From Thermoflexus hugenholtzii JAD2 (lineage in GTDB: Bacteria; Chloroflexota; UBA11872; UBA12225): a stretch of 64,000 nucleotides of DNA. The notes under the pieces are model-generated. The model worked only from the letters and a program-made list of their open reading frames with translations, did no database searches and had not been told where the DNA came from. The stretch spans positions 5,111 through 69,110 of the forward strand of contig CAMBEO010000003.1 in assembly GCA_945865725.1 (NCBI GenBank), written 5' to 3'. Both the position numbers and the translations under genes were made by a program. Positions 1,682 through 63,572 of this stretch are shown here, one piece after another; position 1 is the first letter of the stretch; each line of letters opens with the position of its first letter.

Positions 1682-2287
1682 GTGAACTGCCCCACGTGCG
1701 GGCTGCCGCTTCCCAACGTCTACAAGCCCTGTCCCCAATGCGCGGCCCGCTCAGGCATCGCGCCCGCTTCGCCCGCAACCGCTCGCCCCATGATCGCGAA
1801 AAAGGTCCTCGCGCCGGTCATGGCGACGTTGGTCGTGGTCACCCTCGGGACCATCGTCCTGGCCAGTTACGCGGGAGGGGCCTCGTCAGCCGGCGGCGCG
1901 CGATCACAATGGACCCCCACGCCCTCGACCGCGGAAGGGATCACGGCGGATGCCTTACAGGCCTACGCCCGCGCCAACTTCGGCTCGGCAGGCGCGAAGG
2001 GCGGCGTGGCTCTTTGGTGGCCGACGGTCACGGGGATGGACGTCCGCGCCGGATATGCGATCGCGCATACCACCCTTCACGACACCGCCAAGGACATCCG
2101 AATGGCAATCGACGTTTGCGTCGCCCTCGTCTACTTTGCAAACGACAAGGGCCGCAAGGGCATGAAGTTGACGCACGTGAAGGTCACTGGCGTCGACGGC
2201 CTCGTCCTTATCGACACGACCGCGGACGCGAGCGAAACCGACCCGTGCCAGTCATTCCGGGCGCGACCGACCCGCGCCCGCGATTGA
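1682..2287 (+). CDS. Zinc-ribbon (CxxC...CxxC) membrane-anchored hypothetical protein
   Basis: GTG start preceded by GGGAGG 7 nt upstream. N-terminus has CPTCG...CPQC, then a TM helix and a Gly/Ala-rich domain. Confidence 0.5.
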   Translation: MNCPTCGLPLPNVYKPCPQCAARSGIAPASPATARPMIAKKVLAPVMATLVVVTLGTIVLASYAGGASSAGGARSQWTPTPSTAEGITADALQAYARANFGSAGAKGGVALWWPTVTGMDVRAGYAIAHTTLHDTAKDIRMAIDVCVALVYFANDKGRKGMKLTHVKVTGVDGLVLIDTTADASETDPCQSFRARPTRARD

Positions 2288-2411
2288 CGCCCCTTGCCCC
2301 GTGACCGTCGTACGACGAGACCGGCCCGGGACGCAGGCACCCTGCCGACACCACCGGCAGCGCTCGGGGGCTTCCGTGGCGGAGCCCCCCAGCGTGGTAG
2401 CCGCTGCGCGC

Positions 2412-3353
2412 CTACTCGACCAGCCCGGTCCGGTCGATCGACTCCACGAAGAAGCGCTGCGTGAAGAGGTAGATTGACAGCGGCGGCACGATCACCAGGA
2501 AGACCGCTGCCATGACCAGGGCCTCGTTGAACAACTCGCTTGCCTGACCGCCGGTCGCCGTATCCAACGAGGGCGACAGGACCGACAGTCGCATCGGCAA
2601 CGTGAAGTATTCCATCCGGTTCAAGTAGATGAACGGCTCGAAGAAGTCGTTCCAGTGCCAGACCACGCTGAACAGGAAGACCACCACGACGGCCGGCATC
2701 GCGAGCGGCACCATGATCCGCCACCACGTGCCGAAGGCGCTCGCACCGTCGATGCGCGCCGCCTCCTCGAGCTCCCACGGCAGGGTCTTGAAGAACTGCC
2801 GGAAGACCACGACGAACAGCGCCCCCTTGAGGCCGTGTCCGAAGAAGCTTGGCACCACGAACGGGTTGTACGTGTTGATCCACCCGAGGTTCTTGTACAG
2901 GATGAACAGCGGCACGATGATCGTCTGGGGCGGCACGAGGAACGTGAACAGCACCAGGGCGAACAAGGCGTCACGCCCCGGGAACCGGATGCGCGCGAAC
3001 CCGTAGCCGACAAATGCGCAACTGACCGTCTGCCCGACGGCTGACCCCAGCGAAATATACAGGCTGTTCGAGAGCGACTTGACGTACGCCATCGAGAAGA
3101 ACGCCAACGGGTAGTTGATCCAGAAGAACCCGGACGGGATCCACACGATGGTCGGGTCGCTGAGGTCCTGCGACGTCTTCAGCGACGTGGCCATGATGTA
3201 GAAGATCGGCACGAGAAACACGAACGCGATATCAATCAGTACGAGGTACGTGAACGCCCGCTGCAGGAACGTGATCGACCGGCGGCGAACGATCTGGGGA
3301 TCGCGGTACCACTTCGGGCGCGCGATGAGAAACGGCGTGATCGTGGACGTCAC
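2412..3353 (-). CDS. Carbohydrate ABC transporter permease (MalG-like, CUT1)
   Basis: EAA-loop motif LEEAARIDGASAFGTWWRIMVPLAMP. GTG start at 3353, 1 nt after the upstream permease stop. The 5' part of the longer ORF would overlap the upstream gene. Confidence 0.75.
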   Translation of the reverse strand: MTSTITPFLIARPKWYRDPQIVRRRSITFLQRAFTYLVLIDIAFVFLVPIFYIMATSLKTSQDLSDPTIVWIPSGFFWINYPLAFFSMAYVKSLSNSLYISLGSAVGQTVSCAFVGYGFARIRFPGRDALFALVLFTFLVPPQTIIVPLFILYKNLGWINTYNPFVVPSFFGHGLKGALFVVVFRQFFKTLPWELEEAARIDGASAFGTWWRIMVPLAMPAVVVVFLFSVVWHWNDFFEPFIYLNRMEYFTLPMRLSVLSPSLDTATGGQASELFNEALVMAAVFLVIVPPLSIYLFTQRFFVESIDRTGLVE

Positions 3354-3354
3354 A

Positions 3355-4281
3355 CTAGCCACTGCGGTCCCCCGCGTAAAACACGTACCGGTTCGTGATC
3401 CGCACGACCACGAACAGGATGGCGAAGACGACGATGAAGTAGATCCAGCCAAGCGCCGCGGCGTACCCAAGGCGGAACCCGCCCGCGAACGCCGTCATCT
3501 GGATGTACTCGAGCACGCTATTGAACGTGTCCGTGAAGCTGTCCACGATCGTGTAGACGAGGTTGACCAGGATCACGGGCGACAGCAGGGGCAGCGTCAC
3601 CTTCCAGAACCGGTCCCAGTCTGTCGCGCCGTCGACGCGTGCCGCCTCGTAGAGGACCGGCGACACGCTGTTCAGGCCCGCAAGGAAGATGAGCATCTGC
3701 ACGCCGGTCTTCCAGAGGACGAACAGCAGGCGGTTCAGGAGGTCCGACACCCCCGCCGCGGCATCCGGGCCGATGTACTCGAAGACCAGCTCCTGGATGT
3801 TCACGCCTTGCGAGAGCGTGGCCCCGCCCACTCCCTGCGCGAACAGCTGCTTGATCACTTGCGCGGACCCGATCACCAGCGGCAGGAAGAACACCGCCCG
3901 GAACCCGATCACCCCCTTGATCTTCTGGTTCGCGAGGATTGCCGAGAACAAGCTGAAGATCATGATCACCGGCACGTCGAGCAGGTTGTTCCGCAACGTC
4001 TCCCAGAGGCGCGGCAGGAAGCGCGCGTCGATGACGAACGCCTCCTTGTAATTGTCGATGCCCTTCCACTTCAGGTCGGTCAGGCTTGTCGCCTGCAATT
4101 CATTGAAGCTCAAGAACAAGCTTTGGAACAACGGCCATGCCAGGAACACGAGGAAGCCGATCACCCACGGACTCACGAAGAAGTAGCCTTCAAGCGTGCG
4201 TTGGGTCGTCAAGGACATGCGGCGCCGCCGTGGACCCGCCCCCGCCAGCGCCTCGCTCGTTCGAGCGACCGCGATCCTCAT
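3355..4281 (-). CDS. Carbohydrate ABC transporter permease (MalF/UgpA-like)
   Basis: Six TM segments and EAA motif LYEAARVDGATDWDRFWKVTLP. ATG at 4281 with GGAAGG upstream; ATGA overlap with the upstream GH-like gene. Confidence 0.8.
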   Translation of the reverse strand: MRIAVARTSEALAGAGPRRRRMSLTTQRTLEGYFFVSPWVIGFLVFLAWPLFQSLFLSFNELQATSLTDLKWKGIDNYKEAFVIDARFLPRLWETLRNNLLDVPVIMIFSLFSAILANQKIKGVIGFRAVFFLPLVIGSAQVIKQLFAQGVGGATLSQGVNIQELVFEYIGPDAAAGVSDLLNRLLFVLWKTGVQMLIFLAGLNSVSPVLYEAARVDGATDWDRFWKVTLPLLSPVILVNLVYTIVDSFTDTFNSVLEYIQMTAFAGGFRLGYAAALGWIYFIVVFAILFVVVRITNRYVFYAGDRSG

Positions 4282-6596
4282 CGCCCGCCTGCCTTCCGTT
4301 CAAGGGCATACCCGTACCCGCGCACTTCCGCCCCGTCGGGCGTCCGCCTCGGCTCCGGGTTGTAGTTGACGTACAGGCGCGTGCCGTCCGCGTACGTCAC
4401 GCGGTTGAACTCGCGCGCCAGGATCTCGTGGTTCGTGATCGCCTGTCCCGCGAGAAACCCGAAGGTCTCCCGCATGAAGCGGTACTCGTTCGCCGCCGGT
4501 TCCAACCAGTCGTCGACCTGGCTCGAGTACAGGATGTTGTAGTCCGTTCGGATCAGGTCCGAAGACGGTGCCCAGGTGAGCTGGTACACCGGTTGCAACC
4601 CCCACTCGTACTGGCGGAGCAGCTCCGTCTTCGGGTCGTTCCGGAGGTTCGCCCGCACCGTGTGGCGCACCACCAGGCCCTGCGTCGCGATGTGGTACAC
4701 GGGCACGGCCACGTCGCCGAACGCGTCCAGCGACGCCACCGGCGCGTCGTACACCCGGTCGGTCCGACCGAGGACGTACGCGTTCGGACCCGACACGATC
4801 GCCCCGCCCAGGACCTCGCGCTCCCGGTCCGCCATCTTCATCCAGGTCTCGGCAACCTCCTGGCGCGAGAGCGGGTACCGGTCGTTGGTGTCCGACATGA
4901 CCATCGAGCCCATCTGGCGAAGGTTCACGCCATCGATGCCCATCGCCCGGTGCGTCGGCAAGTCGCGTTCGAGGTAATTGTTGCGGGCGATCACCGGGTT
5001 CAGGAGGTAGATGCCGCCCGACCCCTCGAAGACCGGCAGCTTGTTCACGCCCCGGACGGTGTCCCAGCGCGAGTTGAAGCCGTAGCTCCAGTTCGGCCAG
5101 ATGTTCCGCAGGCCGGGGATCTGCCCGATGATCCCGCCCGACGAGAACGTGTACCCGAACATGTAGTCGTCTTCCAGGATGACCCGCACGCCCAGCTCGT
5201 GCGCCGCCTTGATGAAGGCACGGAGGCCGTCATCCCCGCCCAGGCCGCTCTCGGCCGGGTACCTGCGCGGCCACCGGCCCCGGAAGCCGTCGTCCGCCCA
5301 GCCGATCAGGTGGACGTCGAAGTCCTTCACCCCGCGGTCGATGAACTGCCGGAGGATCGTGACCCCCTGCTCGAACGTCGTCGTCGGCACGAAGTCCTCG
5401 CGGAACGACGTGAGGCGCGTGATGCCCATGAACAGGTCGAGCATCGGGCGCGGCGGGTCGGCCGACACGGGCTTGAGGCCCTTGGCGGTCATGAGGTAGT
5501 CGCGGTAGGCGCGTGCCATCCCCGCGTAGCTGGAGTCATCGCCGGTCAGCAGGACGTACCGGACTTGCCGGTCGCCAGGCAGGCGTTCCTCCTCGATCTT
5601 GTTGACGAACACGCTGCGCCGGCGCGGGATGCTCGCCTGGCGACGGTAGAGGAACTCGGCCGACCCGCGGTTCGCGTTCATGATGTAACCGGCCAGGTAC
5701 GCGTTCACGTTGGCCTGGAACTCGCCTTGGGTCACGATCCCGGCGTAGGCCCCATCCGCGTGCTTCAACCCCCACAGGGGCATCGTGGGGCGCGTGACGA
5801 CCATCCCCGGCCGCCTGGAACCGCCACCGCCCGCGCCGAAGAGGTTGGACGCCACGTCCGGGCCGAAGATCTGGGCGGAGTACCGTTGCCGGTACTGCGG
5901 GTAATCGGGCTTGAACTCGACGATCGCCCCGGCGCCGTCCGGGACCATGACGTAGCCCTTCTCGCCGATGCGTGCCGCGCCGAAGAGGGGAAGCACCTCG
6001 AGTGTCACGACCTTGAAGCAGGTGCCGCTCGTCACCAGCGAGCAGTCGCCGTACTCCTCGATCCCCTTGTCGGGGATGGTGACCTCGAGGAACGGGATGG
6101 GCCGCCCGTCCGGCGCGCGGTCCTCCTTGATCGCGTAATCGACGGCGAGCCGGGTCTTGAACTTGCCGACGTCGTAGGTCGCCCGGAAGCCTCCCGGGCG
6201 TGGCACCACCGTGATCACGGGCTTCTCGGAGTTCCAGGTGAGCAGGTTCGTCATCTGGCGCTTGGCGTTGGTCACGCTCAGCAGGAAGAGCGCGTCCTCC
6301 TGCGAGGCCTTCTGCGCCGCGAGGGGCTCCAGCGGGTTGCTTGCCCACTGCTTCCCGGACCGCCGGTCCTCCACGACGAACCGCGAGTCGGTCACGTTCA
6401 CGTGCAGCCGCAGCGTCGCGGTCTCGGCAACCTGCTCGAAGCCGGCGGGGATCGGGGCGGGCGCGACCGACGATGCCACCTCGGCCCGTGCGGGGAGCGC
6501 AGGCAGCGCCCCGGTCGCGAGGACGGTCACCACCGCCAGCGCGCGCCACGCCACGCGGATCGCGGCCGTTCGTGCCACCCCTGAAAACGTCGTCAT
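4278..6596 (-). CDS. Secreted putative glycoside hydrolase-like protein (TIM-barrel-type; family not resolved)
   Basis: Internal ATG at 6596 with AGAGGA 7 nt upstream gives a clean signal peptide (MTTFSGVARTAAIRVAWRALAVVTVLATGALPALPARA). Upstream 248 codons of the long ORF are Arg/Gly/Pro-rich junk. Co-operonic with sugar permeases. Confidence 0.55.
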   Translation of the reverse strand: MTTFSGVARTAAIRVAWRALAVVTVLATGALPALPARAEVASSVAPAPIPAGFEQVAETATLRLHVNVTDSRFVVEDRRSGKQWASNPLEPLAAQKASQEDALFLLSVTNAKRQMTNLLTWNSEKPVITVVPRPGGFRATYDVGKFKTRLAVDYAIKEDRAPDGRPIPFLEVTIPDKGIEEYGDCSLVTSGTCFKVVTLEVLPLFGAARIGEKGYVMVPDGAGAIVEFKPDYPQYRQRYSAQIFGPDVASNLFGAGGGGSRRPGMVVTRPTMPLWGLKHADGAYAGIVTQGEFQANVNAYLAGYIMNANRGSAEFLYRRQASIPRRRSVFVNKIEEERLPGDRQVRYVLLTGDDSSYAGMARAYRDYLMTAKGLKPVSADPPRPMLDLFMGITRLTSFREDFVPTTTFEQGVTILRQFIDRGVKDFDVHLIGWADDGFRGRWPRRYPAESGLGGDDGLRAFIKAAHELGVRVILEDDYMFGYTFSSGGIIGQIPGLRNIWPNWSYGFNSRWDTVRGVNKLPVFEGSGGIYLLNPVIARNNYLERDLPTHRAMGIDGVNLRQMGSMVMSDTNDRYPLSRQEVAETWMKMADREREVLGGAIVSGPNAYVLGRTDRVYDAPVASLDAFGDVAVPVYHIATQGLVVRHTVRANLRNDPKTELLRQYEWGLQPVYQLTWAPSSDLIRTDYNILYSSQVDDWLEPAANEYRFMRETFGFLAGQAITNHEILAREFNRVTYADGTRLYVNYNPEPRRTPDGAEVRGYGYALERKAGGR

Positions 6597-6643
6597 GGTC
6601 GGGTCCTCTGCCTGGGTACGGGGGAGCGGGACTTGGCTACCTG

Positions 6644-7336
6644 CTAGCGCGTGGTGATCTCGTAGAAGACCTGGTAGAAGAACTCCCAGGTGTTGCTCGA
6701 CAGCGCGAAGACCAGCGAGGCCAGCGCCCAGATGACGATCACCGTCGCCGCGCTGATCGCGTAGGTCGCCATGGTCCGAGCCGCCGAGAAGTCGTGGATG
6801 ACCCGCACGTGCGTGTAGAAGAGGTACGCGACCCAGAACCGGACCCCCGATCCCAGGACCATGAACAGCCCCCGCTCCGGCAAGGTCATCACGTTGGTCA
6901 TGACCAGCACGAGCAGCGGTGCGAGGATGATGTACGGCCCGAAGCTGAAGGCAGCGGTAACGCAAATGTCGCGGAACGACCCCTCGCCGAACAGGATCAT
7001 CGAGACCGCGTAGTGCGCCAAGCACCACGTCACGAACGGGATGACGATGCGCACCCCCTCCTGGAGGATGGAGGTGTCCTCGGGGTTCCCGCCGTACAGG
7101 AACTGGGCCATGCCGAAGGTGAGGGTCCGCGTCACGAGGTCCATCGCCCGCTCGACGGACCACGTCGCCTGGTCGATCGCGAAGAAGGTGAAGTGGAACC
7201 CCATGGTCGCCATCACCAGGCCGCGCGCCGCGATAAGTAACGAGACCACGAACGCGACCGACCACCAGTCCCCGGAGCGCTTCAGCTCCCAGAACCCGTC
7301 CTCGGGATGCAGCGCGACGAACACCATCTGGCGCAT
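6644..7336 (-). CDS. Yip1-domain family integral membrane protein
   Basis: Five hydrophobic helices with a Yip1-like arrangement. ATG at 7336 chosen; an earlier GTG near 7531 would place a repeat element in frame, which is not excluded. Confidence 0.5.
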   Translation of the reverse strand: MRQMVFVALHPEDGFWELKRSGDWWSVAFVVSLLIAARGLVMATMGFHFTFFAIDQATWSVERAMDLVTRTLTFGMAQFLYGGNPEDTSILQEGVRIVIPFVTWCLAHYAVSMILFGEGSFRDICVTAAFSFGPYIILAPLLVLVMTNVMTLPERGLFMVLGSGVRFWVAYLFYTHVRVIHDFSAARTMATYAISAATVIVIWALASLVFALSSNTWEFFYQVFYEITTR

Positions 7337-7449
7337 CCACTTCGTGGAATACCAGCGCGCATCATCGACCGCCCGGCGCCACCCCGTCAGCTCCGTCCGC
7401 CGGTCGGAGGCCCGGTGCACCGGGAACCGCGCCGGATAGTAGGGGACGG

Positions 7450-7500
7450 TGGTGCTTCCCTCTCCCGCCGCAGCGGGGGAGGGACTGAGGGTGGGGGCGC
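7450..7500 (+). repeat. Mosaic GC-rich repeat, module A (CTTCCCTCTCCCGCCGCAGCGGGGGAGGGACTGAGGGTGGGGG)
   Basis: Exact copy of the 42-nt hairpin module that recurs across the window. Confidence 0.9.
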
Positions 7501-7527
7501 TTCCCGTCTCGGCGAAAGTCTCGATCG

Positions 7528-9039
7528 TCACTGGATGCCCCCGCGGTCGTCGAAGCGCATCGACATGAGCGCGGCCCCGATCCGCCGCCCGCCCCACGTG
7601 ACGAGCACGATCAGGCCGATGGCGGCGGGCAGCACCCAGCCAAACTCCTCGCGGATGAAGTCGTGCCTCAACTCGCCGAACGCGAGCGACCAGCCATCAC
7701 GATTGCGGGCGACCTCGTACTCCTGCATCGCCGCCACGTACTCCCCGCGCTTGAAGAAGGCCTTCGCGAGGCCCACGTGCGCCAGCTCGAAGTTGCTGTC
7801 CCGGCGCAAGACCTCGCGCCAGATCGCCTCCGCCTCCTGGTACTTGCCGTCGAAGTGCAGGCGGCTACCTCGGTGCAGCAGCTCCGCGAACTCGGTCGGG
7901 CGGAACGCCTGCACGTTGTTGCGGTTCGCATCCAGGACGTAGATCCGGCCGTTCGGACCGACCGCCAGGCTCTGGGGCAGCTCGAACTTCCCGCGCTGCG
8001 CCCCCCGCCCGCCGAAGATCGCCAGCAAGTTCGCGGACTGGTCGTACTGGTAGACGCGCCCGCTGTTGAAGTCGAGCGCCGACACCATCCCCTGCGAGTC
8101 GGTCGTGACGTCCACGAATTGCGGCTTGACCTGCTGCCCGGCGCGCCACTCGACCTCGCCGTACTTCCGGTTCCCCGTGGTGTACACGTCGTTGCCGATC
8201 GAGTTCAGCTTCTTGATCTGGTCGACGGCACCCAGCGGCGACACGGTGTAGATGAACCCCCGCTCGTCCACGAACATGTTGGCGTGATGCGTCGGCAAGG
8301 TCTTCGAGATCTGCTTCTTCTGCACCTCCGTCGTGAAGATGCGGATCAACAGGCGGCCAAGGTCGAACGTCAGGCGGTTCGCCCCGAAGAAGCCACGGAA
8401 GGTGCCCTCGCCGTCCAAGAGGAAGATCCCCCGGAAGTCACCGCCCCCGTTCAGCACGTAGAGGTATCCCCGACGATCGATCACCACCTTGTTCGGCTGG
8501 TAGACCTGGTCGTCGACGAGGAGCCGGGAGGACGGCTTCCCGAACTGCTTGACAAATTCGCCCGACGGGGTGAACAGGACGACCCGGCCATTGCCCCGGT
8601 CGGCGATCCACACGTCCCCCTGATGGGTGACGAAGACCCCCTCGGGCGCGTTCAGCTTCGCCGGTCCGTCAGGGGTGCCGAACTGCATGACGAACGTGCC
8701 GTCCGCATTGAACTTCAGTACGCGGTTGTTCCCGGTGTCCGCGATCCAGACGAACCCGAGCGAGTCGATGAAGATGTCGGCCGGGTTCTTGAACGTCCCC
8801 GACTTCTGGTACATCCCGTCTATTTCGAAGTCGTAGATGTATGGCAGCGGCGACGCGAGCGAACGGCTGTCCTTGTCGAGCGTCCACGAGTACTCGCGAT
8901 CCGCCGACGCGACGGGTGCGAGGCCCGGGGCCAGGGCAAGGCAGATCGCTGCGAGCGCACCGCCGACCGCCGCGCCCCAAGCACGAAGCCTCGGTGCGTG
9001 GCGAGGGGGCGCCAGAGGGCGTTGTCGCTGCCCGGTCAC
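7528..9039 (-). CDS. NHL-repeat beta-propeller protein with C-terminal TPR-like segment and TM anchor
   Basis: Repeated NHL-like blades (...GFVWIADTGNNRVLKF..., ...GDVWIADRGNGRVVLF..., ...GRIYVLDANRNNVQAF...). GTG start at 9039 forms a GTGA overlap with the upstream permease stop; a signal-peptide-like segment follows. Confidence 0.7.
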   Translation of the reverse strand: MTGQRQRPLAPPRHAPRLRAWGAAVGGALAAICLALAPGLAPVASADREYSWTLDKDSRSLASPLPYIYDFEIDGMYQKSGTFKNPADIFIDSLGFVWIADTGNNRVLKFNADGTFVMQFGTPDGPAKLNAPEGVFVTHQGDVWIADRGNGRVVLFTPSGEFVKQFGKPSSRLLVDDQVYQPNKVVIDRRGYLYVLNGGGDFRGIFLLDGEGTFRGFFGANRLTFDLGRLLIRIFTTEVQKKQISKTLPTHHANMFVDERGFIYTVSPLGAVDQIKKLNSIGNDVYTTGNRKYGEVEWRAGQQVKPQFVDVTTDSQGMVSALDFNSGRVYQYDQSANLLAIFGGRGAQRGKFELPQSLAVGPNGRIYVLDANRNNVQAFRPTEFAELLHRGSRLHFDGKYQEAEAIWREVLRRDSNFELAHVGLAKAFFKRGEYVAAMQEYEVARNRDGWSLAFGELRHDFIREEFGWVLPAAIGLIVLVTWGGRRIGAALMSMRFDDRGGIQ

Positions 9040-9944
9040 GCCTTGATTCCCGAATGTGCCATCGTCTGGATCACCTTCGCCTGCCGGAGGAGGAACACCG
9101 TGATGGTCGGCGCCGTCATGAGGAAGGCCGCCGCCGCTTGAGCGCCCTGCCGGGCGATCGTCGCCGGGCCGTTCGTCAGGCCGATCATCGCCACGCTCAC
9201 CGTCTTCATCGCCTCGCTCCGCGTGAACACGAGCGGGCTGAAGCTGTCGTTCCACAACTGGATGAACCCAAAGATGAGCAACGTGTTCCATGCCGGCGCC
9301 ACGTTCGGCATGACGATCCGCCAGAAGATCGTCCACTCCTGCGCGCCATCGACGCGCGCCGCCTCGATCAACTCGTTCGGCACCGCGTTGTCCATGAACT
9401 GCTTCATCATGAAGAGGCCGTACGACCAAGCGAGCGACGGCAGGATCAGCGCACCGTAGGTGTCGATCAATCCGAGCTTCTGGACGACCAGGTACTGCGG
9501 GATCCGGGTGACCTGCGGCGCAAACATCAGGGCCGCGACGATCGCGCCGAAGATCAGGTTGCGCCCCGGCAGCACCCGCGCCTTCGATAGCGGGTAGGCG
9601 CACATCGAGCACATCACCACTTGCAGCATGACCGTGCAGAGCACGACGAACACGCTGTTGAAGAGGTAGCGCGTGAACGGCACCGACAGCGCGTTCGTCG
9701 CGAAGAGCAAGTCCTGGAAGTTGTCGAGGGTCGGGCGCCGCACAAGGAACGGCGGCGGGAAGAGCAGCAGCTCCTCGAGCGGCTTGAATGCCGTCGAGAT
9801 CACGTACACGATCGGCAGCATCGAGAAGACGGCCATCGGCAGCAGGAAGAGGTACGACGGCGCCGGCGACGCACGGCGGATCGACCGCCAGAGGCGCGGC
9901 AGCGTGTCGTCGTATGCCACCCGTTGCTGGGCAATCGTGGCCAT
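9036..9944 (-). CDS. Carbohydrate ABC transporter permease (MalG-like)
   Basis: EAA motif IEAARVDGAQEWTIFWRIVMPNVAP; six TM segments. Confidence 0.85.
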   Translation of the reverse strand: MATIAQQRVAYDDTLPRLWRSIRRASPAPSYLFLLPMAVFSMLPIVYVISTAFKPLEELLLFPPPFLVRRPTLDNFQDLLFATNALSVPFTRYLFNSVFVVLCTVMLQVVMCSMCAYPLSKARVLPGRNLIFGAIVAALMFAPQVTRIPQYLVVQKLGLIDTYGALILPSLAWSYGLFMMKQFMDNAVPNELIEAARVDGAQEWTIFWRIVMPNVAPAWNTLLIFGFIQLWNDSFSPLVFTRSEAMKTVSVAMIGLTNGPATIARQGAQAAAAFLMTAPTITVFLLRQAKVIQTMAHSGIKA

Positions 9945-9964
9945 CGGTCATCCCTTCCTGCAAG

Positions 9965-10110
9965 TGATCTGGGGGTGGGGCGGTGGTGGTGACGGAGGGT
10001 GGGGGTGGTGCTTCCCTCTCCCGCCGCAGCGGGGGAGGGACTGAGGGTGGGGGTAAGGGTGGTGGTAAGGGTGGTGGTGACGGAGGGTGGGGGCAGTCCT
10101 TCGCTCGCCG
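9965..10110 (+). repeat. Mosaic repeat cluster (modules F-A-F plus 'cagtccttcgctcg' tail)
   Basis: GGTGGTGGTGACGGAGGGTGGGGG flanks module A on both sides. Lies between the two permease genes. Confidence 0.85.
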
Positions 10111-10119
10111 AAACCGACC

Positions 10120-11073
10120 CTAGTACTCGTTCTTGGATGAGAACATGCGCATCAGCAACCGCCCCATGCCGAACGTGAGGGCGAACAGGAAGACCGCCAC
10201 CGTCGTGGCGTACCCCATCTCAAATCGGATGAACGCGAAGTCATACATGTGCGCGACGATCGTGTGGCCGGCGTACAGCGGGCTCGGCAGCCCCGCCAGG
10301 CTCGTCGCAACCTCGAATACCGAGAACCCCGCCACCACCGCCATCACGCTGCCGAACAACAACTGCGGCTTGATCATCGGAAGCGTGATGTACCACACCT
10401 CCTGCAACGGGTTCTTGATGCCGTCCATCTTTCCCGCCTCGTACAGGTCGGTGGGAACCGTCTGCAACCCGGCGAGGAAGACCAGGAACCCCGTGCCCAT
10501 GCTCATCCACAAGGCGACGAACATGATCACCGGCATGATCGCCGCCTGCTCGGCGAGGAACATGTACGGCTCGTCGATCGCCCCGATCCCGAGCAACCAG
10601 TTGTTCAAGTACCCGTAGCGGTCGCCGGAGAAGACGATCTTCCACACCACGCCCATCGCCACCGCGCCGGTGATCGATGGCGCGTAGAAGCACAGGGCCA
10701 GCGGAGTCTTGAGCTTGAGCGGGTTGATCAGCCAGGCGAACATGAACGAGAGGAAGAACCCGATCGGGCCCGTGATGATCGCGAACGTCAGCGTGTTCCC
10801 GATCGCCGTGACGAAGACGTCGTCCTCAAGGAACAGCAACTTGTAGTTGCTCCACCCGATGAAGCGCGGCGCCTCGAGCACGTTGAAGTACGTGAAGCTC
10901 AGCGCCATCGCCGTCACGACCGGGGCGATCACGAAGACCACGAAAAAGGCGAGGAACGGCGCCATGAAGAAGTACGAGGTGCTGTACTTCCGCCACGCGA
11001 GCGCGAAACCAGCGGGCGCCTCCGCCCGTGCGGTCGAAAGCCGGGTTGCAAGCACTTCACTTCCCGTCGCCAT
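10120..11073 (-). CDS. Carbohydrate ABC transporter permease (MalF/UgpA-like)
   Basis: EAA motif LYEAGKMDGIKNPLQEVWYITLPMIKP; TM-rich. Confidence 0.85.
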   Translation of the reverse strand: MATGSEVLATRLSTARAEAPAGFALAWRKYSTSYFFMAPFLAFFVVFVIAPVVTAMALSFTYFNVLEAPRFIGWSNYKLLFLEDDVFVTAIGNTLTFAIITGPIGFFLSFMFAWLINPLKLKTPLALCFYAPSITGAVAMGVVWKIVFSGDRYGYLNNWLLGIGAIDEPYMFLAEQAAIMPVIMFVALWMSMGTGFLVFLAGLQTVPTDLYEAGKMDGIKNPLQEVWYITLPMIKPQLLFGSVMAVVAGFSVFEVATSLAGLPSPLYAGHTIVAHMYDFAFIRFEMGYATTVAVFLFALTFGMGRLLMRMFSSKNEY

Positions 11074-11153
11074 CGCTAGCCTCCCTTATCACCGGCGCAC
11101 CCCGCCGGGCCGCCCCGGGGGACGCGGTCGCCCGCGGACCAAACCCCACCGCC

Positions 11154-14100
11154 TTAGCCACGGCGGTACATCGACCGGTCGACCTTCACGCCGAACTCTT
11201 CCTGCTTCTTCGCGAGCTCCTTGTTGACGTCGTAGATCGCGTCTTCAAGCGCCTCGCGAGGGTTCATGCCCTGCAGGACCACCCGGTTCCACGCGTTCAG
11301 CACGTGTCGGCCGGTGAAGTACCCGCCCAGCACGACTGGTGGCTCCCGGAACCACTTCCACTGCTCCATGATGTTGGCGATGTCGCGCCGGGGCCACGGC
11401 AGTTCTTGCAGCGCCTCGAGGTTGGCGGTGTTCCAGCGGGCCTCGACCCCGATCAGGGCCTCCAGCTCGCCGCCGAAGCGCCGTTGCGCGTCCTTCGAGG
11501 ACCACCACTTGACGAACTCCCAACTTTCCGCCTTGTGCCTCGACTGCTCGAAGATCACCATGCTGGCGCCGGTGCCCCCGCTCGCGCGGATGATCGTCCC
11601 GTCCGGCACGGGCTTGCCGGTCTGGGTGTCGATGCACGGCACGATCGTCCCCATCGAGGTCGTCGACCCGCACCGGTGGCCCGGCATCGGGCGCATCTCC
11701 CACCGCCCGGTCAGCTCCGGCGCCGCGACCGACAAGCTGATGTAGATGCCGTACCCGGCCACGCCGATCGGCTGCTCGCCCGTCCGCATGCGCGTGAAGA
11801 AGTTCGCCTCGCGCGGGATCTTGTAGTTGCTGTAGAGGTCCGTCCACTCCTGGAAGCCCACGAGCGACTCCGGCGAGTCGAGCGCCGACCGGCAGGAGCC
11901 ATCCGTGCAACGGTAGTACTGCCCGCCGTTCTGGAACAGGAACGGCGTGAACCCGACCGCACCCTCGGTCACGGCAACGCCCGTCGGCGGCGGGTAGTAG
12001 AAGTCGAGGCCGGCCTGCTGCAATTTCAGCAGCGCCTCGTACAGGTCATCCCACGTGTCGGGCGGCTTGATCCCCAGTTCCGAAAGGATGTCCGTCCGGT
12101 AGAACGTCATCGCGAAGTCCTGGGTCTCCGGGATCGCCCAGTTCCCCTCCTCCAGCGTGAACGGGACCCGGTACCGGAAGGGGACCAGCGCGCCGTCCCG
12201 GAAGCGCTTCGCGACTTGCGGGTAGTCCGCGAACGTGGAGAGGTTCACCAGCCCCTTGCGGACGGCGAAGTCGACCGGCAGCTGGCTGGGCACGCCGACG
12301 GCGACGTCCGGCGCCTCGCCCGCGGTCGTCGCCAGGAGCAGGACGGACCCCGCGCCTTCCCCGAGGCTTGCGGGCGGGATGACGTGCACGTTCACCTTGA
12401 TCCCGGAGTTCGGCGTGAAGTCGTCCTCGATCATGTCCTTCATGATCTGGCCCCACTCCGTGCCGCGCCCGACCCACACGTCCAGCACGACCTCCTTGGA
12501 ATCCTTGGAGTAACTGCTGCCGAGGCCGGTGTAGTCGCGGGTGAACGACGACAGGAAGGTGGCGAGGCTGGCGTACGCCATCTCGAACATGTTGGCCTGC
12601 ACGCGTGGCAAGGGCGACCGCGCCGAGTGCACCATGAGCCACTCAACCGCGAGCGGATGGTTCTGCATGTGTAGCAGCCAACTGGCAAGGATGCCCTGGC
12701 TACGCAGGAAGTCCTCGAGCAGGCGGTGGATCTCGGCAGGCTTCTCGATCATGCGCTCGAGTTGCGCGCCGACCACCCGGAAGGCCGACGACGCGTCGTT
12801 CTTCGCCCGCCCGATCTCCTCCATGCGCGTCGCCTGCAAGTCCAGGCGGTCGCGCAGCTTGACGAGGCGAGGCACGAGGGTGGGGATCTTCTCGTGAAGG
12901 TCCCACTCCATGTTCACGTCGGGTTGCGAGCCGGTGACCATGAGCATCTCGCGGCTCATCTGGCTCATTTCCGAGAGCATCTGGTCAAGCTCGCGCATGG
13001 TCTCGGACATGAACCCGAGCGTCACCTCCATCTGGATGACGTTCGTGCCCTTTTTCAAGTGGAACAGGTAGGGCGCGCCGTCCGAGGACTGCTCCTCGCG
13101 GATCGTCTCGAGGCGCCAGTCGCGCTCCATCCGGAACAGGATCGCCCGCATCTCCCGGAACGGCATCTCGCCATTGACCCGGAGCGCCCGCAGGCGCGGG
13201 CGTCGTCCCGCCCAACCCTGCCAGATGTTGAAGCTCATCTGGTAGAGGCCCTCCTCGGGGACCTCCACCTCCCACCGCACCCATTGGCCAGGCAGGCGCC
13301 ACCGCCACCAGCCGAACGAGTTCAACGCGAACAGGCCGTCCGCGTACGGGCTTGCCAGCGCGTCGAAGTTCACCTCGCCACGGACGGTCGGGTCGGACTT
13401 GGTGAGCGTCTTCTCGGCCTCGACGCGAATGCCTTGCTTCAGCTCGACCTCGCGGAGGCCCTGTGCCTTCCATGCCTTGAGGCGGTCCGCGTACGTCGGC
13501 ACCACGACCGGGGAATGGATCGTGATGGACCCGAGGGCGATCGTCTCGCGCACGGTCTGGAAGCGAAGCACCTGCACGCCCTTTTCGAACAGGAACTGGA
13601 ACGGCGCGTCATACCTGCCGTCCGCGTCCTCGATCGTCTTGGTCTCCCAGCGCGGCGCTTCAATCTGGGGGGGGCGGACGTCGTTCCCCTGGTTGTCCTT
13701 CTTCGCCTCGGCGGAATCGCGCCAGACGCGATGGAAGACGACCCGTTTCGCTTCCCGGAACGGCAACTTTCCATTGATAAGGAGGTCACGTTGTACGGAT
13801 GCGCGCTTTCCCTTGATCGGGAAGTATTCGACCGTGATTTCGTAGAGGCCCGTCTCCGGGACGGGAACCTTCCACTCGACCCACCCGTCATCCTCCGCCC
13901 AGATGAGGGTCGGGCCTTTCCTGCCCTCGAAGTCCTGCTCGACGCGCAAGCCCTCGTTGCCCCCGCTGGCGGCGAAATCGACGGCGCGGATCTCGATGCG
14001 CTGGCCGGTAGTCGCCTTGTGCTGACGGTCCCAGTCGGCCTTCTGGTCCTGGTAGATCGGCTGGCCCGCGAGGTCCTCGGGAAGCATGTCCTCGAAGAGC

Positions 14101-14348
14101 TTGTCGCTCGGCGGGCGAGCCGCTGGCGCGGCCGGCGGCTGGGCCTGCGACGTCAGCTTGCCTCCCGGCGCCGTGCCGTTCATCGCGGCCGCCCCACGGG
14201 CATCCACGAGCGGCGCCAGCGACGCGCCGACGATCACGATCGCCAGCGCACGGCGCACCCACCCGCTCGCGCGCGCCCCATGCCTCGCCCTTCGACCATG
14301 GATGGCCGAGGCAGCCTGAAGCGCGTCCACGGTGCCGGAATCCTGCAT
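11154..14348 (-). CDS. Giant extracellular solute-binding protein (ABC, family 1) with N-terminal tandem carbohydrate-binding-like beta-sandwich repeats and a coiled-coil segment
   Basis: ATG at 14348 with GGGAGA 6 nt upstream, then a signal/TM segment. Two paralogous repeats (WVEWKVPVPETGLYEITVEYFPIKG...LINGKLPFREAKR and WVRWEVEVPEEGLYQMSFNIWQG...RVNGEMPFREMRA). The C-terminal 450 aa resemble a family-1 SBP. Upstream 290 codons of the long ORF are antisense-like junk. Confidence 0.7.
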   Translation of the reverse strand: MQDSGTVDALQAASAIHGRRARHGARASGWVRRALAIVIVGASLAPLVDARGAAAMNGTAPGGKLTSQAQPPAAPAARPPSDKLFEDMLPEDLAGQPIYQDQKADWDRQHKATTGQRIEIRAVDFAASGGNEGLRVEQDFEGRKGPTLIWAEDDGWVEWKVPVPETGLYEITVEYFPIKGKRASVQRDLLINGKLPFREAKRVVFHRVWRDSAEAKKDNQGNDVRPPQIEAPRWETKTIEDADGRYDAPFQFLFEKGVQVLRFQTVRETIALGSITIHSPVVVPTYADRLKAWKAQGLREVELKQGIRVEAEKTLTKSDPTVRGEVNFDALASPYADGLFALNSFGWWRWRLPGQWVRWEVEVPEEGLYQMSFNIWQGWAGRRPRLRALRVNGEMPFREMRAILFRMERDWRLETIREEQSSDGAPYLFHLKKGTNVIQMEVTLGFMSETMRELDQMLSEMSQMSREMLMVTGSQPDVNMEWDLHEKIPTLVPRLVKLRDRLDLQATRMEEIGRAKNDASSAFRVVGAQLERMIEKPAEIHRLLEDFLRSQGILASWLLHMQNHPLAVEWLMVHSARSPLPRVQANMFEMAYASLATFLSSFTRDYTGLGSSYSKDSKEVVLDVWVGRGTEWGQIMKDMIEDDFTPNSGIKVNVHVIPPASLGEGAGSVLLLATTAGEAPDVAVGVPSQLPVDFAVRKGLVNLSTFADYPQVAKRFRDGALVPFRYRVPFTLEEGNWAIPETQDFAMTFYRTDILSELGIKPPDTWDDLYEALLKLQQAGLDFYYPPPTGVAVTEGAVGFTPFLFQNGGQYYRCTDGSCRSALDSPESLVGFQEWTDLYSNYKIPREANFFTRMRTGEQPIGVAGYGIYISLSVAAPELTGRWEMRPMPGHRCGSTTSMGTIVPCIDTQTGKPVPDGTIIRASGGTGASMVIFEQSRHKAESWEFVKWWSSKDAQRRFGGELEALIGVEARWNTANLEALQELPWPRRDIANIMEQWKWFREPPVVLGGYFTGRHVLNAWNRVVLQGMNPREALEDAIYDVNKELAKKQEEFGVKVDRSMYRRG

Positions 14349-14612
14349 CGCGTCTCCCTGCGGGCGCGGAGCCCCGTACCGGGCGCTCCCCTGGACCTTG
14401 TCCCTGCCCGCTGCAAGCGGCGCCGAGTATAGCGGTGCCCGCCGATGCGCAAGGCGTGACCGCGCGTTCCCGCCCCGCGGCGAACGGGTCGCTATACTGG
14501 CCGTTGGCGCGAATCTATGCGTTCGTGGGCCGGCGTGCAACCTTTCGACGGGACGGCACGCCACCCCGAAACCTCCCTGCCTCGCCGGTCGGCGTTCGCC
14601 CAAGGGGGCGCG

Positions 14613-15185
14613 ATGGTACTTAGCGATCGGTCCATCCGCGCGCTCCTCGCCTCCGGGCGACTGGCCATCGACCCGTTCGACCCTGGCTCCATCCAGCCGT
14701 CGAGCATCGACTTGCGCCTTGACGCGCGCTTCCGCGTGTTCCGCAGCACGCGGTACACGCATATCGACCCGCGCGCCGACCAACCCGACCTTACCGAGCT
14801 GCTGGTCCTGGACGACGCGCACCCGTTCGTCCTGCAGCCCGGGCAGTTCTGCCTCGGCAACACGTTCGAGGAGCTCAGCCTCCCGGACGACGTGGTCGGG
14901 CGCCTCGAGGGCAAGAGCTCGCTCGGCCGTCTCGGTCTCGTCATCCACTCGACGGCCGGGTATGTCGACCCTGGCTTCCGCGGGCGGCTCACGCTCGAAC
15001 TGAGCAACGCCGCCGCCCTTCCCATCCTCCTCTACCCCGGCATGAAGATCGGCCAGCTGTCGCTGATCCAGATGACGACGCCTGCCGACAGCCCGTACGG
15101 GTCCCGGTCCCTCGGCAGCAAGTACCAGGGGCAGGACGAGCCCACCGCAAGTCGCAGCCACCTCGACTTCCGCGACCTTCCCTGA
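14613..15185 (+). CDS. dcd: dCTP deaminase
   Basis: ATG with AGGGGG 5 nt upstream. Full-length similarity to dCTP deaminase (…QPSSIDLRL…[14 protein letters not shown]…). Confidence 0.9.
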
Positions 15186-17715: not shown

Positions 17716-17960
17716 CGCGGGGACGGTGGTGCTTCCCTCTCCCGCCGCAGCGGGGGAGGGACTGAGGGTGGGGGCCGTCCCGTCCAGGGGGTGAGGGACT
17801 GAGGGCGGTGGTGCTTCCCTCTCCCGCCGCAGCGGGGGAGGGACTGAGGGTGGGGGCCACCCGGGTGCCGCCGGGGTGGGGGGCTTGGTCCGCGGGCATC
17901 CCTGCCCGCCGGGGTGGGGCCTGAGTTCGTCGCCCCGGGCGGGGAACCGTCTAGCCTCAC
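17716..17960 (+). repeat. Mosaic repeat cluster: tandem module A x2 plus module B (TTGGTCCGCGGGCATCCCTGCCCGCCGGGGTGGGG)
   Basis: Two near-identical module A copies 78 nt apart, then module B. Intergenic between convergent rph and murD. Confidence 0.9.
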
Positions 17961-32624: not shown

Positions 32625-32835
32625 CCCTACCGTTGGTCCGCGGGCATCCTTGCCCGCCCGGGGGAGGGGTAGTGGTGCTTCCCTCTCCCGCCGCAGCGGG
32701 GGAGGGACTGAGGGTGGGGGTAAGGGTGGTGGTGACGGAGGGGAGGGGCAGTCCTTCCCTCTCTCGTTGGTCCGCGGGCATCCTTGCCCGCCCGGGGGTG
32801 AGGGGAGGGGCAGTCCTTCGCTCGACGACACGAAC
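32625..32835 (+). repeat. Mosaic repeat cluster (modules B-A-F-B)
   Basis: TTGGTCCGCGGGCATCCTTGCCCGCC twice, module A once and GGTGGTGACGGAGGGG once. Lies between a divergent membrane-protein gene and mgtC. Confidence 0.9.
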
Positions 32836-41749: not shown

Positions 41750-41990
41750 GTATCGCACCGGGGGAGGCCCTTCCCTCTCCCGCCTCGGCGTTGGGGGTGC
41801 TCGTGGCGCCCCCACCATCGTTATCCGCGTAGGCGACCCCTCTCCCGCCGTAGCGTCGGCAGGCACTAATCGCAGCAGATGGGAGGGGTGGGTGGTGCTT
41901 CCCTCTCCCGCCGCAGCGGGGGAGGGATTGAGGGTGGGGGCCGTCCTGCTCCCCTCTCCCGCCGGCGCGTGCGGGCGCGCATCCGGGTCG
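41750..41990 (+). repeat. Mosaic repeat cluster (modules A-D-C'-A-A')
   Basis: Four hairpin modules, including a near-perfect module A at about 41893 and the reverse of module D (CCACCATCGTTATCCGCGTA). Confidence 0.85.
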
Positions 41991-53789: not shown

Positions 53790-54010
53790 TGCCGGCCAGT
53801 GCCTCCCTCTCCCGTTGGTCCGCGGGCATCCTTGCCCGCCGGGGTGGGGTCTGGGTGCTTCCCTCTCCCGCCGCAGCGCGGGAGTGGATGGGGGGTGGCG
53901 CTTCCCTCTCCCGCCGCAGCGGGGGAGGGACTGAGGGTGGGGGCTAGGGACTGAGGGTGGGGGTCCTTCTCCCCTCTCTCGCCGCAGCGTTGGGGGGGCG
54001 CTTCTTGCGG
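53790..54010 (+). repeat. Mosaic repeat cluster (modules B-A-A plus 'GGGACTGAGGGTGGGGG' duplication)
   Basis: Lies between fhaB and fhaA inside the cell-division gene cluster. Confidence 0.9.
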
Positions 54011-57291: not shown

Positions 57292-57480
57292 CGACCACGG
57301 GACGGCCCCCACCCTCGTTATCCGAGTACTCGGTCCCTCCCCCGCTGCGGCGGGAGAGGGAAGCACCACCGCCCCTCCCCCGGGGGACGTGGTTGCCCGC
57401 GGACCAACGGGAGAGGGAAGCACTTCCCCCACCCTCAGTCCCTCCCCCGCTGCGGCGGGAGAGGGAAGCACCACCGCACG
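57292..57480 (+). repeat. Mosaic repeat cluster (reverse-orientation modules D-A-B-A)
   Basis: Three GGGAGAGGGAAGCAC cores in reverse orientation plus TTGCCCGCGGACCAACGGG. Overlaps the stop region of the glycosyltransferase. Confidence 0.9.

Positions 57481-62459: not shown

Positions 62460-63572
<1,113 letters not shown>

Follow-up and report, generated by a model that had tools for sequence, protein, structure and literature searches.

SusE and SusF, encoded beside a transporter and a glycosidase in the polysaccharide utilization loci of Bacteroidota, are membrane-tethered proteins built of tandem beta-sandwiches that resemble carbohydrate-binding modules (CBMs), and they have been proposed to act as polymer holders at the cell surface. 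Their partner is a TonB-dependent outer-membrane transporter, and the bacteria that use them are diderms. In monoderm bacteria, the usual picture of an ATP-binding cassette (ABC) sugar importer is that of a small lipoprotein which takes up the oligosaccharides that free or wall-bound enzymes release. The solute-binding proteins (SBPs) of CUT1 importers, such as Lin1841 of Listeria innocua (5ysb), the beta-glycosides-binding protein of the 7c6x series and the cycloisomaltooligosaccharide SBP 9xf5, are about 400-450 residues long and are usually lipoproteins in Gram-positive bacteria. Here we describe a 1064-residue protein, termed the giant SBP, which is encoded in Thermoflexus hugenholtzii JAD2 within a stretch of 64,000 nucleotides (contig CAMBEO010000003.1; the whole stretch is called the window). 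It resembles the CUT1 SBPs in Pfam family, in fold and in its pairing with MalF/MalG-type permeases, but it carries a 620-residue N-terminal extension and has no lipobox; most N-termini of its family likewise contain no convincing one. The giant SBP shares a concept with SusE and SusF but no sequence kinship, and it differs from them in that its CBM-like domains are covalently fused to an ABC binding protein and are found in mostly monoderm lineages.

The explanation that we favor, and consider rather probable, is that the giant SBP is an exported CUT1 SBP whose CBM-like module keeps the binding domain at a glycan and which feeds the permease pair A/B encoded directly downstream. Taken singly, both the CUT1 SBP and the CBM35/6-like fold are of known kinds. 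In the literature searched, we found no earlier description of the fusion of an SBP to CBM-like domains, of a helical insertion in a CBM-like domain, or of the fixed partnership of NHL/TPR, Yip1 and DUF5696 proteins that accompanies them.

A first-pass annotation, made from the sequence alone, had predicted a 1064-residue SBP gene of about twice the usual length. The gene proved to be real and the length estimate correct: the open reading frame at 11154-14348 on the minus strand is translated without a stop, GGGAGA, which resembles a ribosome-binding site, lies 5' of the ATG at 14348, and there are 71 full-length homologues. A longer reading frame, with a start as far upstream as 15218, was rejected. 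This extension would overlap the divergent dCTP deaminase gene dcd (14517-15185, plus strand; Pfam DCD, E = 5e-49), which leaves 14348 as the credible start. Homologues align from approximately residue 95 and have N-terminal hydrophobic segments of their own, so the true start is not much further downstream, a possibility that the annotation had named as one that would undo its proposal.

The family is large. We used residues 82-620 as a phmmer query against 1.84 billion cluster representatives (50% identity clusters) and found the N-terminal module, for which Pfam has no model, in at least 1,911 clusters at E <= 1e-3, of which 810 matched at E <= 1e-30. The best 150 of these 1,911 are, with few exceptions, about 940-1050 residues long and carry the module at the N-terminus. 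Homologues with the same architecture, which the annotation had suggested looking for, are thus present both in this family and among the 71 full-length sequences, which are 30-84% identical. Named members come from Chloroflexota, Paenibacillus, Cohnella, Halalkalibacter, Cellulosilyticaceae, Clostridium and Treponema, and are annotated only as "extracellular solute-binding protein". When a collection holding one genome per species was scanned with an alignment of 11 sequences, at least 476 relatives were confirmed; the nearest among the matches listed were a Thermoflexus hugenholtzii metagenome-assembled genome (MAG; 83%) and a Chloroflexota TK10 bin (82%). Three members, P0130 (1260 residues), P0230 (1289 residues) and P0093 (1129 residues), have N-termini that are 100-250 residues longer, and P0130 and P0230 each contain two stretches that match the module. 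Further copies of the CBM-like repeat may be present in the longer members; a Pfam scan of the family members of 1129-1289 residues found no extra recognized domains that could point to a substrate.

We ran AlphaFold2 on the 71-sequence alignment and modeled residues 95-612 separately. The full-length model had a mean predicted local distance difference test (pLDDT) score of 87.3 and a predicted template modeling (pTM) score of 0.82, and the model of residues 95-612 scored 93.4 and 0.89, respectively. Beta-sandwiches had been predicted for the N-terminal region, with structure prediction proposed as the check, and both repeats are indeed folded in this way in the models. The chain begins with a hydrophobic helix, through which the protein is probably tethered to the membrane, and continues through a disordered segment into repeat R1. 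R1 contains a conserved extra loop of approximately 22 residues (DNxGNDxRPxQVExPxW) that has no counterpart in repeat R2, and a short predicted helix at residues 286-295 lies between the two repeats. R2 is followed by a connector and the C-terminal solute-binding domain. The boundaries of all segments are given in Table 1.

R1 and R2 are paralogous. BLASTP aligns residues 150-264 with residues 350-441 at 29% identity (55.8 bits, E = 1e-14). To compare whole domains, we built an R2 profile in which residues 300-446 were spliced onto residues 563-578 in 14 family members. This spliced profile matches the R1 family profile with an hhalign probability of 99.7% (E = 1.8e-25), and the alignment extends through the last strand. 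The strand that follows the helices in R2, P-L-A-V-E-W-L-M-V-H-S-A, mirrors the last strand of R1, and the family consensus is P-h-A-I-x-x-I-x-h-H-S-P in both. Because spliced R2 aligns through its last strand with R1 and with CBM35 modules, the helical region is an insertion of approximately 115 residues inside R2, and not a separate linker: four helices are inserted between the penultimate and the last strands. The annotation was therefore right that the repeats are paralogous, but wrong on their size: instead of segments of about 60 residues, each is an entire domain, of about 170 residues in R1 and 160 in R2. Its Met/Glu/Leu-rich coiled coil fared similarly. The Met-rich stretch exists (23% Met in residues 446-475 versus 3% overall), but it is the first of the four helices inserted in R2. 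These helices are 18-26 residues long with short connecting loops in the model, which makes a compact, antiparallel bundle more likely than a long coiled coil. In sequence, the only match of the insert is a weak, compositional one to 8a3k (E = 4e-7), an antiparallel four-helix coiled coil of designed origin.

The repeats had further been called CBM-like, and this description stands for the fold and for remote profile homology, but not at the level of Pfam thresholds. Foldseek matched the N-terminal model to CBM6 and CBM35 modules in the PDB with a probability of 1.00 and target-normalized template modeling (TM) scores of 0.62-0.76 (2cdp, 2w1w, 5fui, 2vzp), and also returned enzymes that bear tandem CBM35s (5x7o, 3wnk, 5x7g). 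The spliced R2 profile matches the CBM35 region of the cycloisomaltooligosaccharide glucanotransferase 5x7g (E = 2.2e-8) and Rhe-CBM35 of C. thermocellum (2w47, E = 2.9e-4). These alignments run from end to end, and the strand after the helices pairs with the last strand of the CBM35 modules (INLD in 5x7g, NVDY in 2w47). The R1 family profile matches the CBM35 of CsxA (2vzp, E = 9e-4) and 2w47 (E = 1.6e-3). Among 47 relatives, matches under the Pfam threshold were seen to Golvesin_C in 14, to CBM_35 in 5 and to CBM_6 in 2. By predicted fold and by profile, R1 and R2 are thus remote relatives of CBM35 and CBM6. In common with characterized CBM35 and CBM6 modules (5x7g and 3wnk from Paenibacillus/Bacillus, 2w47, 2vzp, and the agarase CBM6 2cdp), they have the fold, the region A Trp and the last-strand motif x-[ILV]-D-[YW]-[IL]. 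They differ in the replaced Asn, the 115-residue helical insertion of R2, the 22-residue loop of R1 and scores that reach no Pfam CBM threshold; moreover, the known modules sit on enzymes, whereas those of the giant SBP sit on a transporter binding protein. An alternation of CBM-like beta-rolls with helical bundles also occurs in the C-terminal region of Cry1-type protoxins (4w8j, 8w7n; Foldseek E = 5e-8 to 4e-7), but with a root-mean-square deviation of approximately 26 Å there is no global superposition, and the partwise resemblance carries no functional implication.

The solute-binding domain that had been predicted to follow the N-terminal region is readily recognized. Pfam SBP_bac_1 (PF01547) matches residues 630-955 with a score of 77.2 bits (cut-off 26; E = 2.9e-21), SBP_bac_8 (PF13416) matches with 46.9 bits, and together the SBP matches span residues 630-958; an NCBIfam search of the giant SBP gave no family. 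A search of PDB profiles gave Lin1841 (5ysb), an SBP for beta-1,2-glucooligosaccharides, with E = 6e-33. In Foldseek comparisons, the domain had target-normalized TM scores of 0.70-0.83 to 5ysb, 6dtr, 7bvt and 5ci5 (E = 1e-20 to 1e-16), and the proteins matched bind beta-glycosides, sophoro-oligosaccharides, cycloisomalto-oligosaccharides and maltodextrins. Profile and model alike identify the C-terminal domain as a two-lobed (Venus-flytrap) CUT1 SBP of the oligosaccharide type. It shares no more than 15-21% of its residues with any SBP of solved structure, and the ligand therefore cannot be transferred from these structures. The domain contains two pairs of Cys residues, at positions 814/819 (YYRCTDGSCRS) and 899/911 (HRCGSTTSMGTIVPC), which may form disulfides. 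Most relatives have gaps at the second stretch in the family alignment, and it looks like a lineage-specific insertion.

The gene had been placed at the head of an ABC operon, and it is indeed the first gene of an eight-gene cassette with MalF/MalG-type permeases directly downstream. The order is giant SBP, permease A, permease B, NHL/TPR protein, Yip1 protein, DUF5696 protein, permease C and permease D (Table 1). We found this order in approximately 76 of 80 loci, which belong to Chloroflexota, many Bacillota and one Spirochaetaceae MAG. In Caldilineaceae the halves are swapped, so that NHL, DUF5696, permease C and permease D precede giant SBP, permease A and permease B.

Table 1. Features of the giant SBP, its gene cassette and associated elements in the window. 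AF2, AlphaFold2; aa, amino acid residues of the giant SBP.
Feature	Coordinates	Strand	Basis or remark
Giant SBP gene	11154..14348	-	1064-aa CUT1 solute-binding protein; stop codon 11154-11156
N-terminal hydrophobic helix, aa 25-43	14220..14276	-	AF2 helix after Arg-rich segment
Pro/Ala-rich disordered tether, aa 45-91	14076..14216	-	pLDDT <50; not conserved in family
Repeat R1, complete CBM35/6-like beta-sandwich, aa 112-282	13503..14015	-	DSSP strands 117-278
Repeat R2 core, CBM35/6-like beta-sandwich without last strand, aa 300-446	13011..13451	-	All-beta ~307-442 (AF2), BLASTP, Foldseek, profiles
Four-helix insertion within R2, aa 447-562	12663..13010	-	AF2 helices 447-472, 491-513, 518-535, 537-562
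R2 last beta-strand, aa 563-578	12615..12662	-	Homologous to R1 last strand; AF2 strand 566-574
Connector helix and linker, aa 579-620	12489..12614	-	AF2 helix 587-601, pLDDT ~78-90
CUT1/family-1 solute-binding domain, aa 621-1064	11157..12488	-	Pfam SBP_bac_1, PDB profile, Foldseek
Permease A, UgpA/MalF type	10120..11073	-	NCBIfam UgpA-like E 1.5e-17; in 80/80 loci
Permease B, UgpE/MalG type	9036..9944	-	Pfam/NCBIfam; in 79/80 loci
NHL beta-propeller and TPR protein, secreted, C-terminal hydrophobic segment	7528..9039	-	Pfam NHL E 3.7e-18 and TPR; 76/80 loci
Yip1-family multi-pass membrane protein	6644..7336	-	Pfam Yip1 E 7.9e-11; separate gene in 67/80 loci, fused to NHL in the rest
DUF5696 protein, secreted, putative remote GH129 relative	4278..6596	-	Pfam DUF5696 E 3.4e-132
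Permease C, MalF type	3355..4281	-	Pfam; in 76/80 loci
Permease D, MalG type, start codon uncertain	2412..3362	-	Pfam; in 77/80 loci
Stand-alone UgpC/MsmK-type ABC ATPase	62460..63572	-	NCBIfam UgpC subfamily, 473 bits vs cut-off 432
REP-like element copies	7448-7495, 10004-10051, 17725-17772, 17807-17854, 32671-32718, 41891-41938, 53894-53941; 57428-57475	- (first seven); + (last)	
REP-like copy in the permease A / permease B gap	10004..10051	-	
REP-like copy between NHL stop and Yip1 start	7448..7495	-	

If the glycan-holding explanation is correct, the giant SBP would lie on the outer face of the membrane, where its C-terminal domain would bind oligosaccharide and pass it to the translocator formed by permeases A and B. 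Energy for this translocator would come from a stand-alone ATPase of the MsmK/UgpC type, perhaps the one encoded at 62460-63572. The CBM-like module would hold the SBP domain at or on the glycan, inside a surface assembly to which the secreted, GH129-like DUF5696 protein and the pair of NHL/TPR and Yip1 proteins would also belong, and cleavage products would be captured at their site of production.

Whether the module has the means to bind sugar was considered by comparison with known binding sites. Two residues serve as signatures of CBM6 and CBM35, a Trp in region A and an invariant Asn in region C (PMC9843283). W411 of R2 aligns with the Trp of GAW and PSW in 2w47 and 5x7g and is conserved in 58 of the 71 homologues; its R1 counterpart, W209, is conserved in 67. 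We read both as the region A stacking Trp, from the alignment and from the spacing to the Asn position. Column 567, which is variable across the family (A19 E14 Q11 T5 D5), is the one that aligns with the Asn in INLD of 5x7g and in NVDY of 2w47. BT0996-C of Bacteroides thetaiotaomicron, a CBM35-like module without either signature, nonetheless binds polygalacturonate (pectate) (PMC9843283), and a comparison of signatures therefore cannot decide whether the module of the giant SBP binds sugar. BT0996-C (7zvo, Foldseek rank 19) resembles the giant SBP in its CBM35/6-like fold and in having Ala where the region C Asn would be; its region A Trp is missing as well, and it binds through a Lys-rich patch, whereas the giant SBP keeps the Trp. 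The capture of a polymeric glycan that the annotation had suggested is partly supported, and for the N-terminal module it is a plausible hypothesis.

Several observations weigh against the explanation that we favor. The region C Asn position is occupied by Ala in both repeats of the giant SBP, Ala567 in R2 and Ala271 in R1 (the latter in 48 of 71 homologues). Pfam found no match in residues 1-620 and no CBM model even at E <= 1, and neither the giant SBP nor 47 relatives reached the gathering score of CBM_35 or CBM_6. Columns that are at least 90% conserved across the family number 78 of 444 in the SBP domain and 37 in the repeats, and this degree of conservation is more in keeping with a ligand or protein partners shared throughout the family than with the capture of diversified glycans. 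The N-terminal helix at residues 25-43 of the model could be either a membrane anchor or a Sec signal that is cleaved. In the window, as in the remaining Chloroflexota loci, there is no second, small SBP and one SBP faces two permease pairs, so that any pairing of SBP and translocator is tentative. Finally, no ligand is known for any member of the giant SBP family, and open-access papers and bioRxiv preprints yielded no description of the cassette, of DUF5696 or of an SBP-CBM35-like fusion.

Some of these observations fit the main rival, in which the CBM-like module has lost sugar binding and serves as a rigid pedestal or docking platform. It would keep the SBP domain at a distance from the membrane and bind protein partners, for instance DUF5696, the permease loops or the pair of NHL/TPR and Yip1 proteins, and only the C-terminal domain would touch carbohydrate. 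The absence of the region C Asn from both repeats, a helical insertion without counterpart in known CBMs, and pTM scores of 0.82-0.89 that predict a fixed packing of domains are all in keeping with such a scaffold. So are R1 and R2 residues that are invariant from Chloroflexota to Paenibacillus paralogues, such as the R1 loop DNxGNDxRPxQVExPxW, and cassette partners that are equally invariant. The high pTM of the models and the invariant residues would fit docking equally well as glycan capture. Retention of the region A Trp (W209 in 67 and W411 in 58 of 71 sequences) argues against a purely structural role, as does the precedent that CBM35-like modules without canonical signatures can bind polysaccharide (PMC9843283). 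We regard the scaffold as unlikely, though a serious competitor. Docking and polymer capture would both be served in a more ambitious version of our own explanation, which we put forward only tentatively and would not bet on. According to this version, the cassette, with its eight genes or, in most Firmicutes, nine, would encode a multi-protein machine of mostly monoderm bacteria that captures, cleaves and imports polysaccharide at the cell surface; the giant SBP would combine SusD/E/F-like roles with that of a transporter binding protein, form a fixed assembly with the GH129-like DUF5696 enzyme and the membrane-anchored NHL/TPR and Yip1 proteins, and feed two ABC translocators, and its helix bundle would dock the assembly.

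The glycan need not be a nutrient. The cassette could handle a surface glycopolymer of the cell itself, in the turnover or recycling of exopolysaccharide or a secondary cell-wall polymer that the giant SBP recognizes. This would accord with the very high conservation of the SBP domain and DUF5696 across phyla, and with a membrane-embedded Yip1 protein and an anchored NHL/TPR protein, both of which are unusual for simple sugar importers. The Chloroflexota copies also have no glycoside hydrolase or sugar regulator alongside and lie among housekeeping genes, which in the window are dcd, a gene for an SBP_bac_5 protein and an apparent RNase PH gene. The Firmicute loci tell against envelope maintenance, and we judge it improbable. 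Cassettes there are flanked by genes for AraC-type response regulators, histidine kinases, LacI, GH5, GH10, GH30 and GH43-CBM6 proteins, and some Paenibacillus genomes have two to four paralogous cassettes that adjoin plant-polysaccharide hydrolases and AraC/LacI-type regulators, as is typical of nutrient loci. An error of gene prediction had to be considered as well, in view of a GC content of 65-70%, at which DNA yields many long spurious open reading frames: the giant SBP might be a normal SBP gene falsely fused to a separate upstream gene or over-extended into chance-open non-coding DNA. We give this practically no credence and rejected it. The architecture of 950-1100 residues recurs in the 71 aligned full-length homologues, low-GC Firmicutes included, and in 1,911 clusters, and the structure is predicted with confidence along its entire length.

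The whole cassette is a more interesting lead than the giant SBP alone. If the module does capture polymer, Gram-positive bacteria and Chloroflexota would have in this system their own equivalent of the Sus paradigm of Bacteroidota, and a role would be assigned to DUF5696 and to bacterial Yip1 proteins. Because several copies lie beside hemicellulase genes in some Paenibacillus and Cohnella genomes, it also bears on the degradation of plant biomass. By comparison of profiles, DUF5696 appears to be a remote relative of the GH129 glycosidases. Its family profile matches the 3,6-anhydro-D-galactosidase 5opq (E = 1.1e-10) and 8rzg (E = 1e-10) over profile positions 73-471, and the alpha-N-acetylgalactosaminidase 5wzn (E = 4.7e-10) over positions 342-501; the aligned regions end short of where the catalytic residues are expected. 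The family has invariant acidic residues at D220, D569, D628 and E664, and a signal-like segment is present at the N-terminus.

Some cassettes of Caldilineaceae and Paenibacillus encode a single protein of 684-773 residues in which NHL/TPR and Yip1 are fused (L005:3398-5716, L013:16172-18223 and L014:14789-16843). This Rosetta-stone link is an argument that the two window proteins act together and suggests that they form a complex. A passage on Yip1 in PMC5898192 deals with archaeal cassettes that are unrelated. Most Firmicute cassettes include an extra SBP of normal size (approximately 470 residues, SBP_bac_1), which lies directly before the giant SBP or after permease D (for example L047:8489-9910, L008:9839-11263 and L017:21130-22575). 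Its placements suggest that the cassette is divided into two units, one consisting of the giant SBP with permeases A and B, and the other of NHL, Yip1, DUF5696 and permeases C and D, together with the small SBP where present. Permease A scores 21.5 bits against Pfam BPD_transp_1, under the gathering cut-off of 26.4, and represents a divergent permease subfamily. The cassette itself contains no ATPase gene. The UgpC/MsmK-type ATPase elsewhere in the window has no adjacent permease or SBP gene and is a candidate for the shared energizer of the cassette, the link between the two being inferred only.

A scan of window positions 2000-15000 for promoters and terminators gave nothing above the expectation from shuffled sequence. 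The window does contain a 48-nucleotide element resembling repetitive extragenic palindromic (REP) sequences (CCCACCCTCAGTCCCTCCCCCGCTGCGGCGGGAGAGGGAAGCACCACC), which is predicted to form a hairpin of -23 kcal/mol and occurs in eight copies at no more than one mismatch, where none is expected. For the Yip1 gene, a GTG start at 7531 was rejected in favor of the ATG at 7336, since the longer reading frame would cross a copy of this repeat. The two copies within the cassette could affect mRNA stability or subunit stoichiometry.

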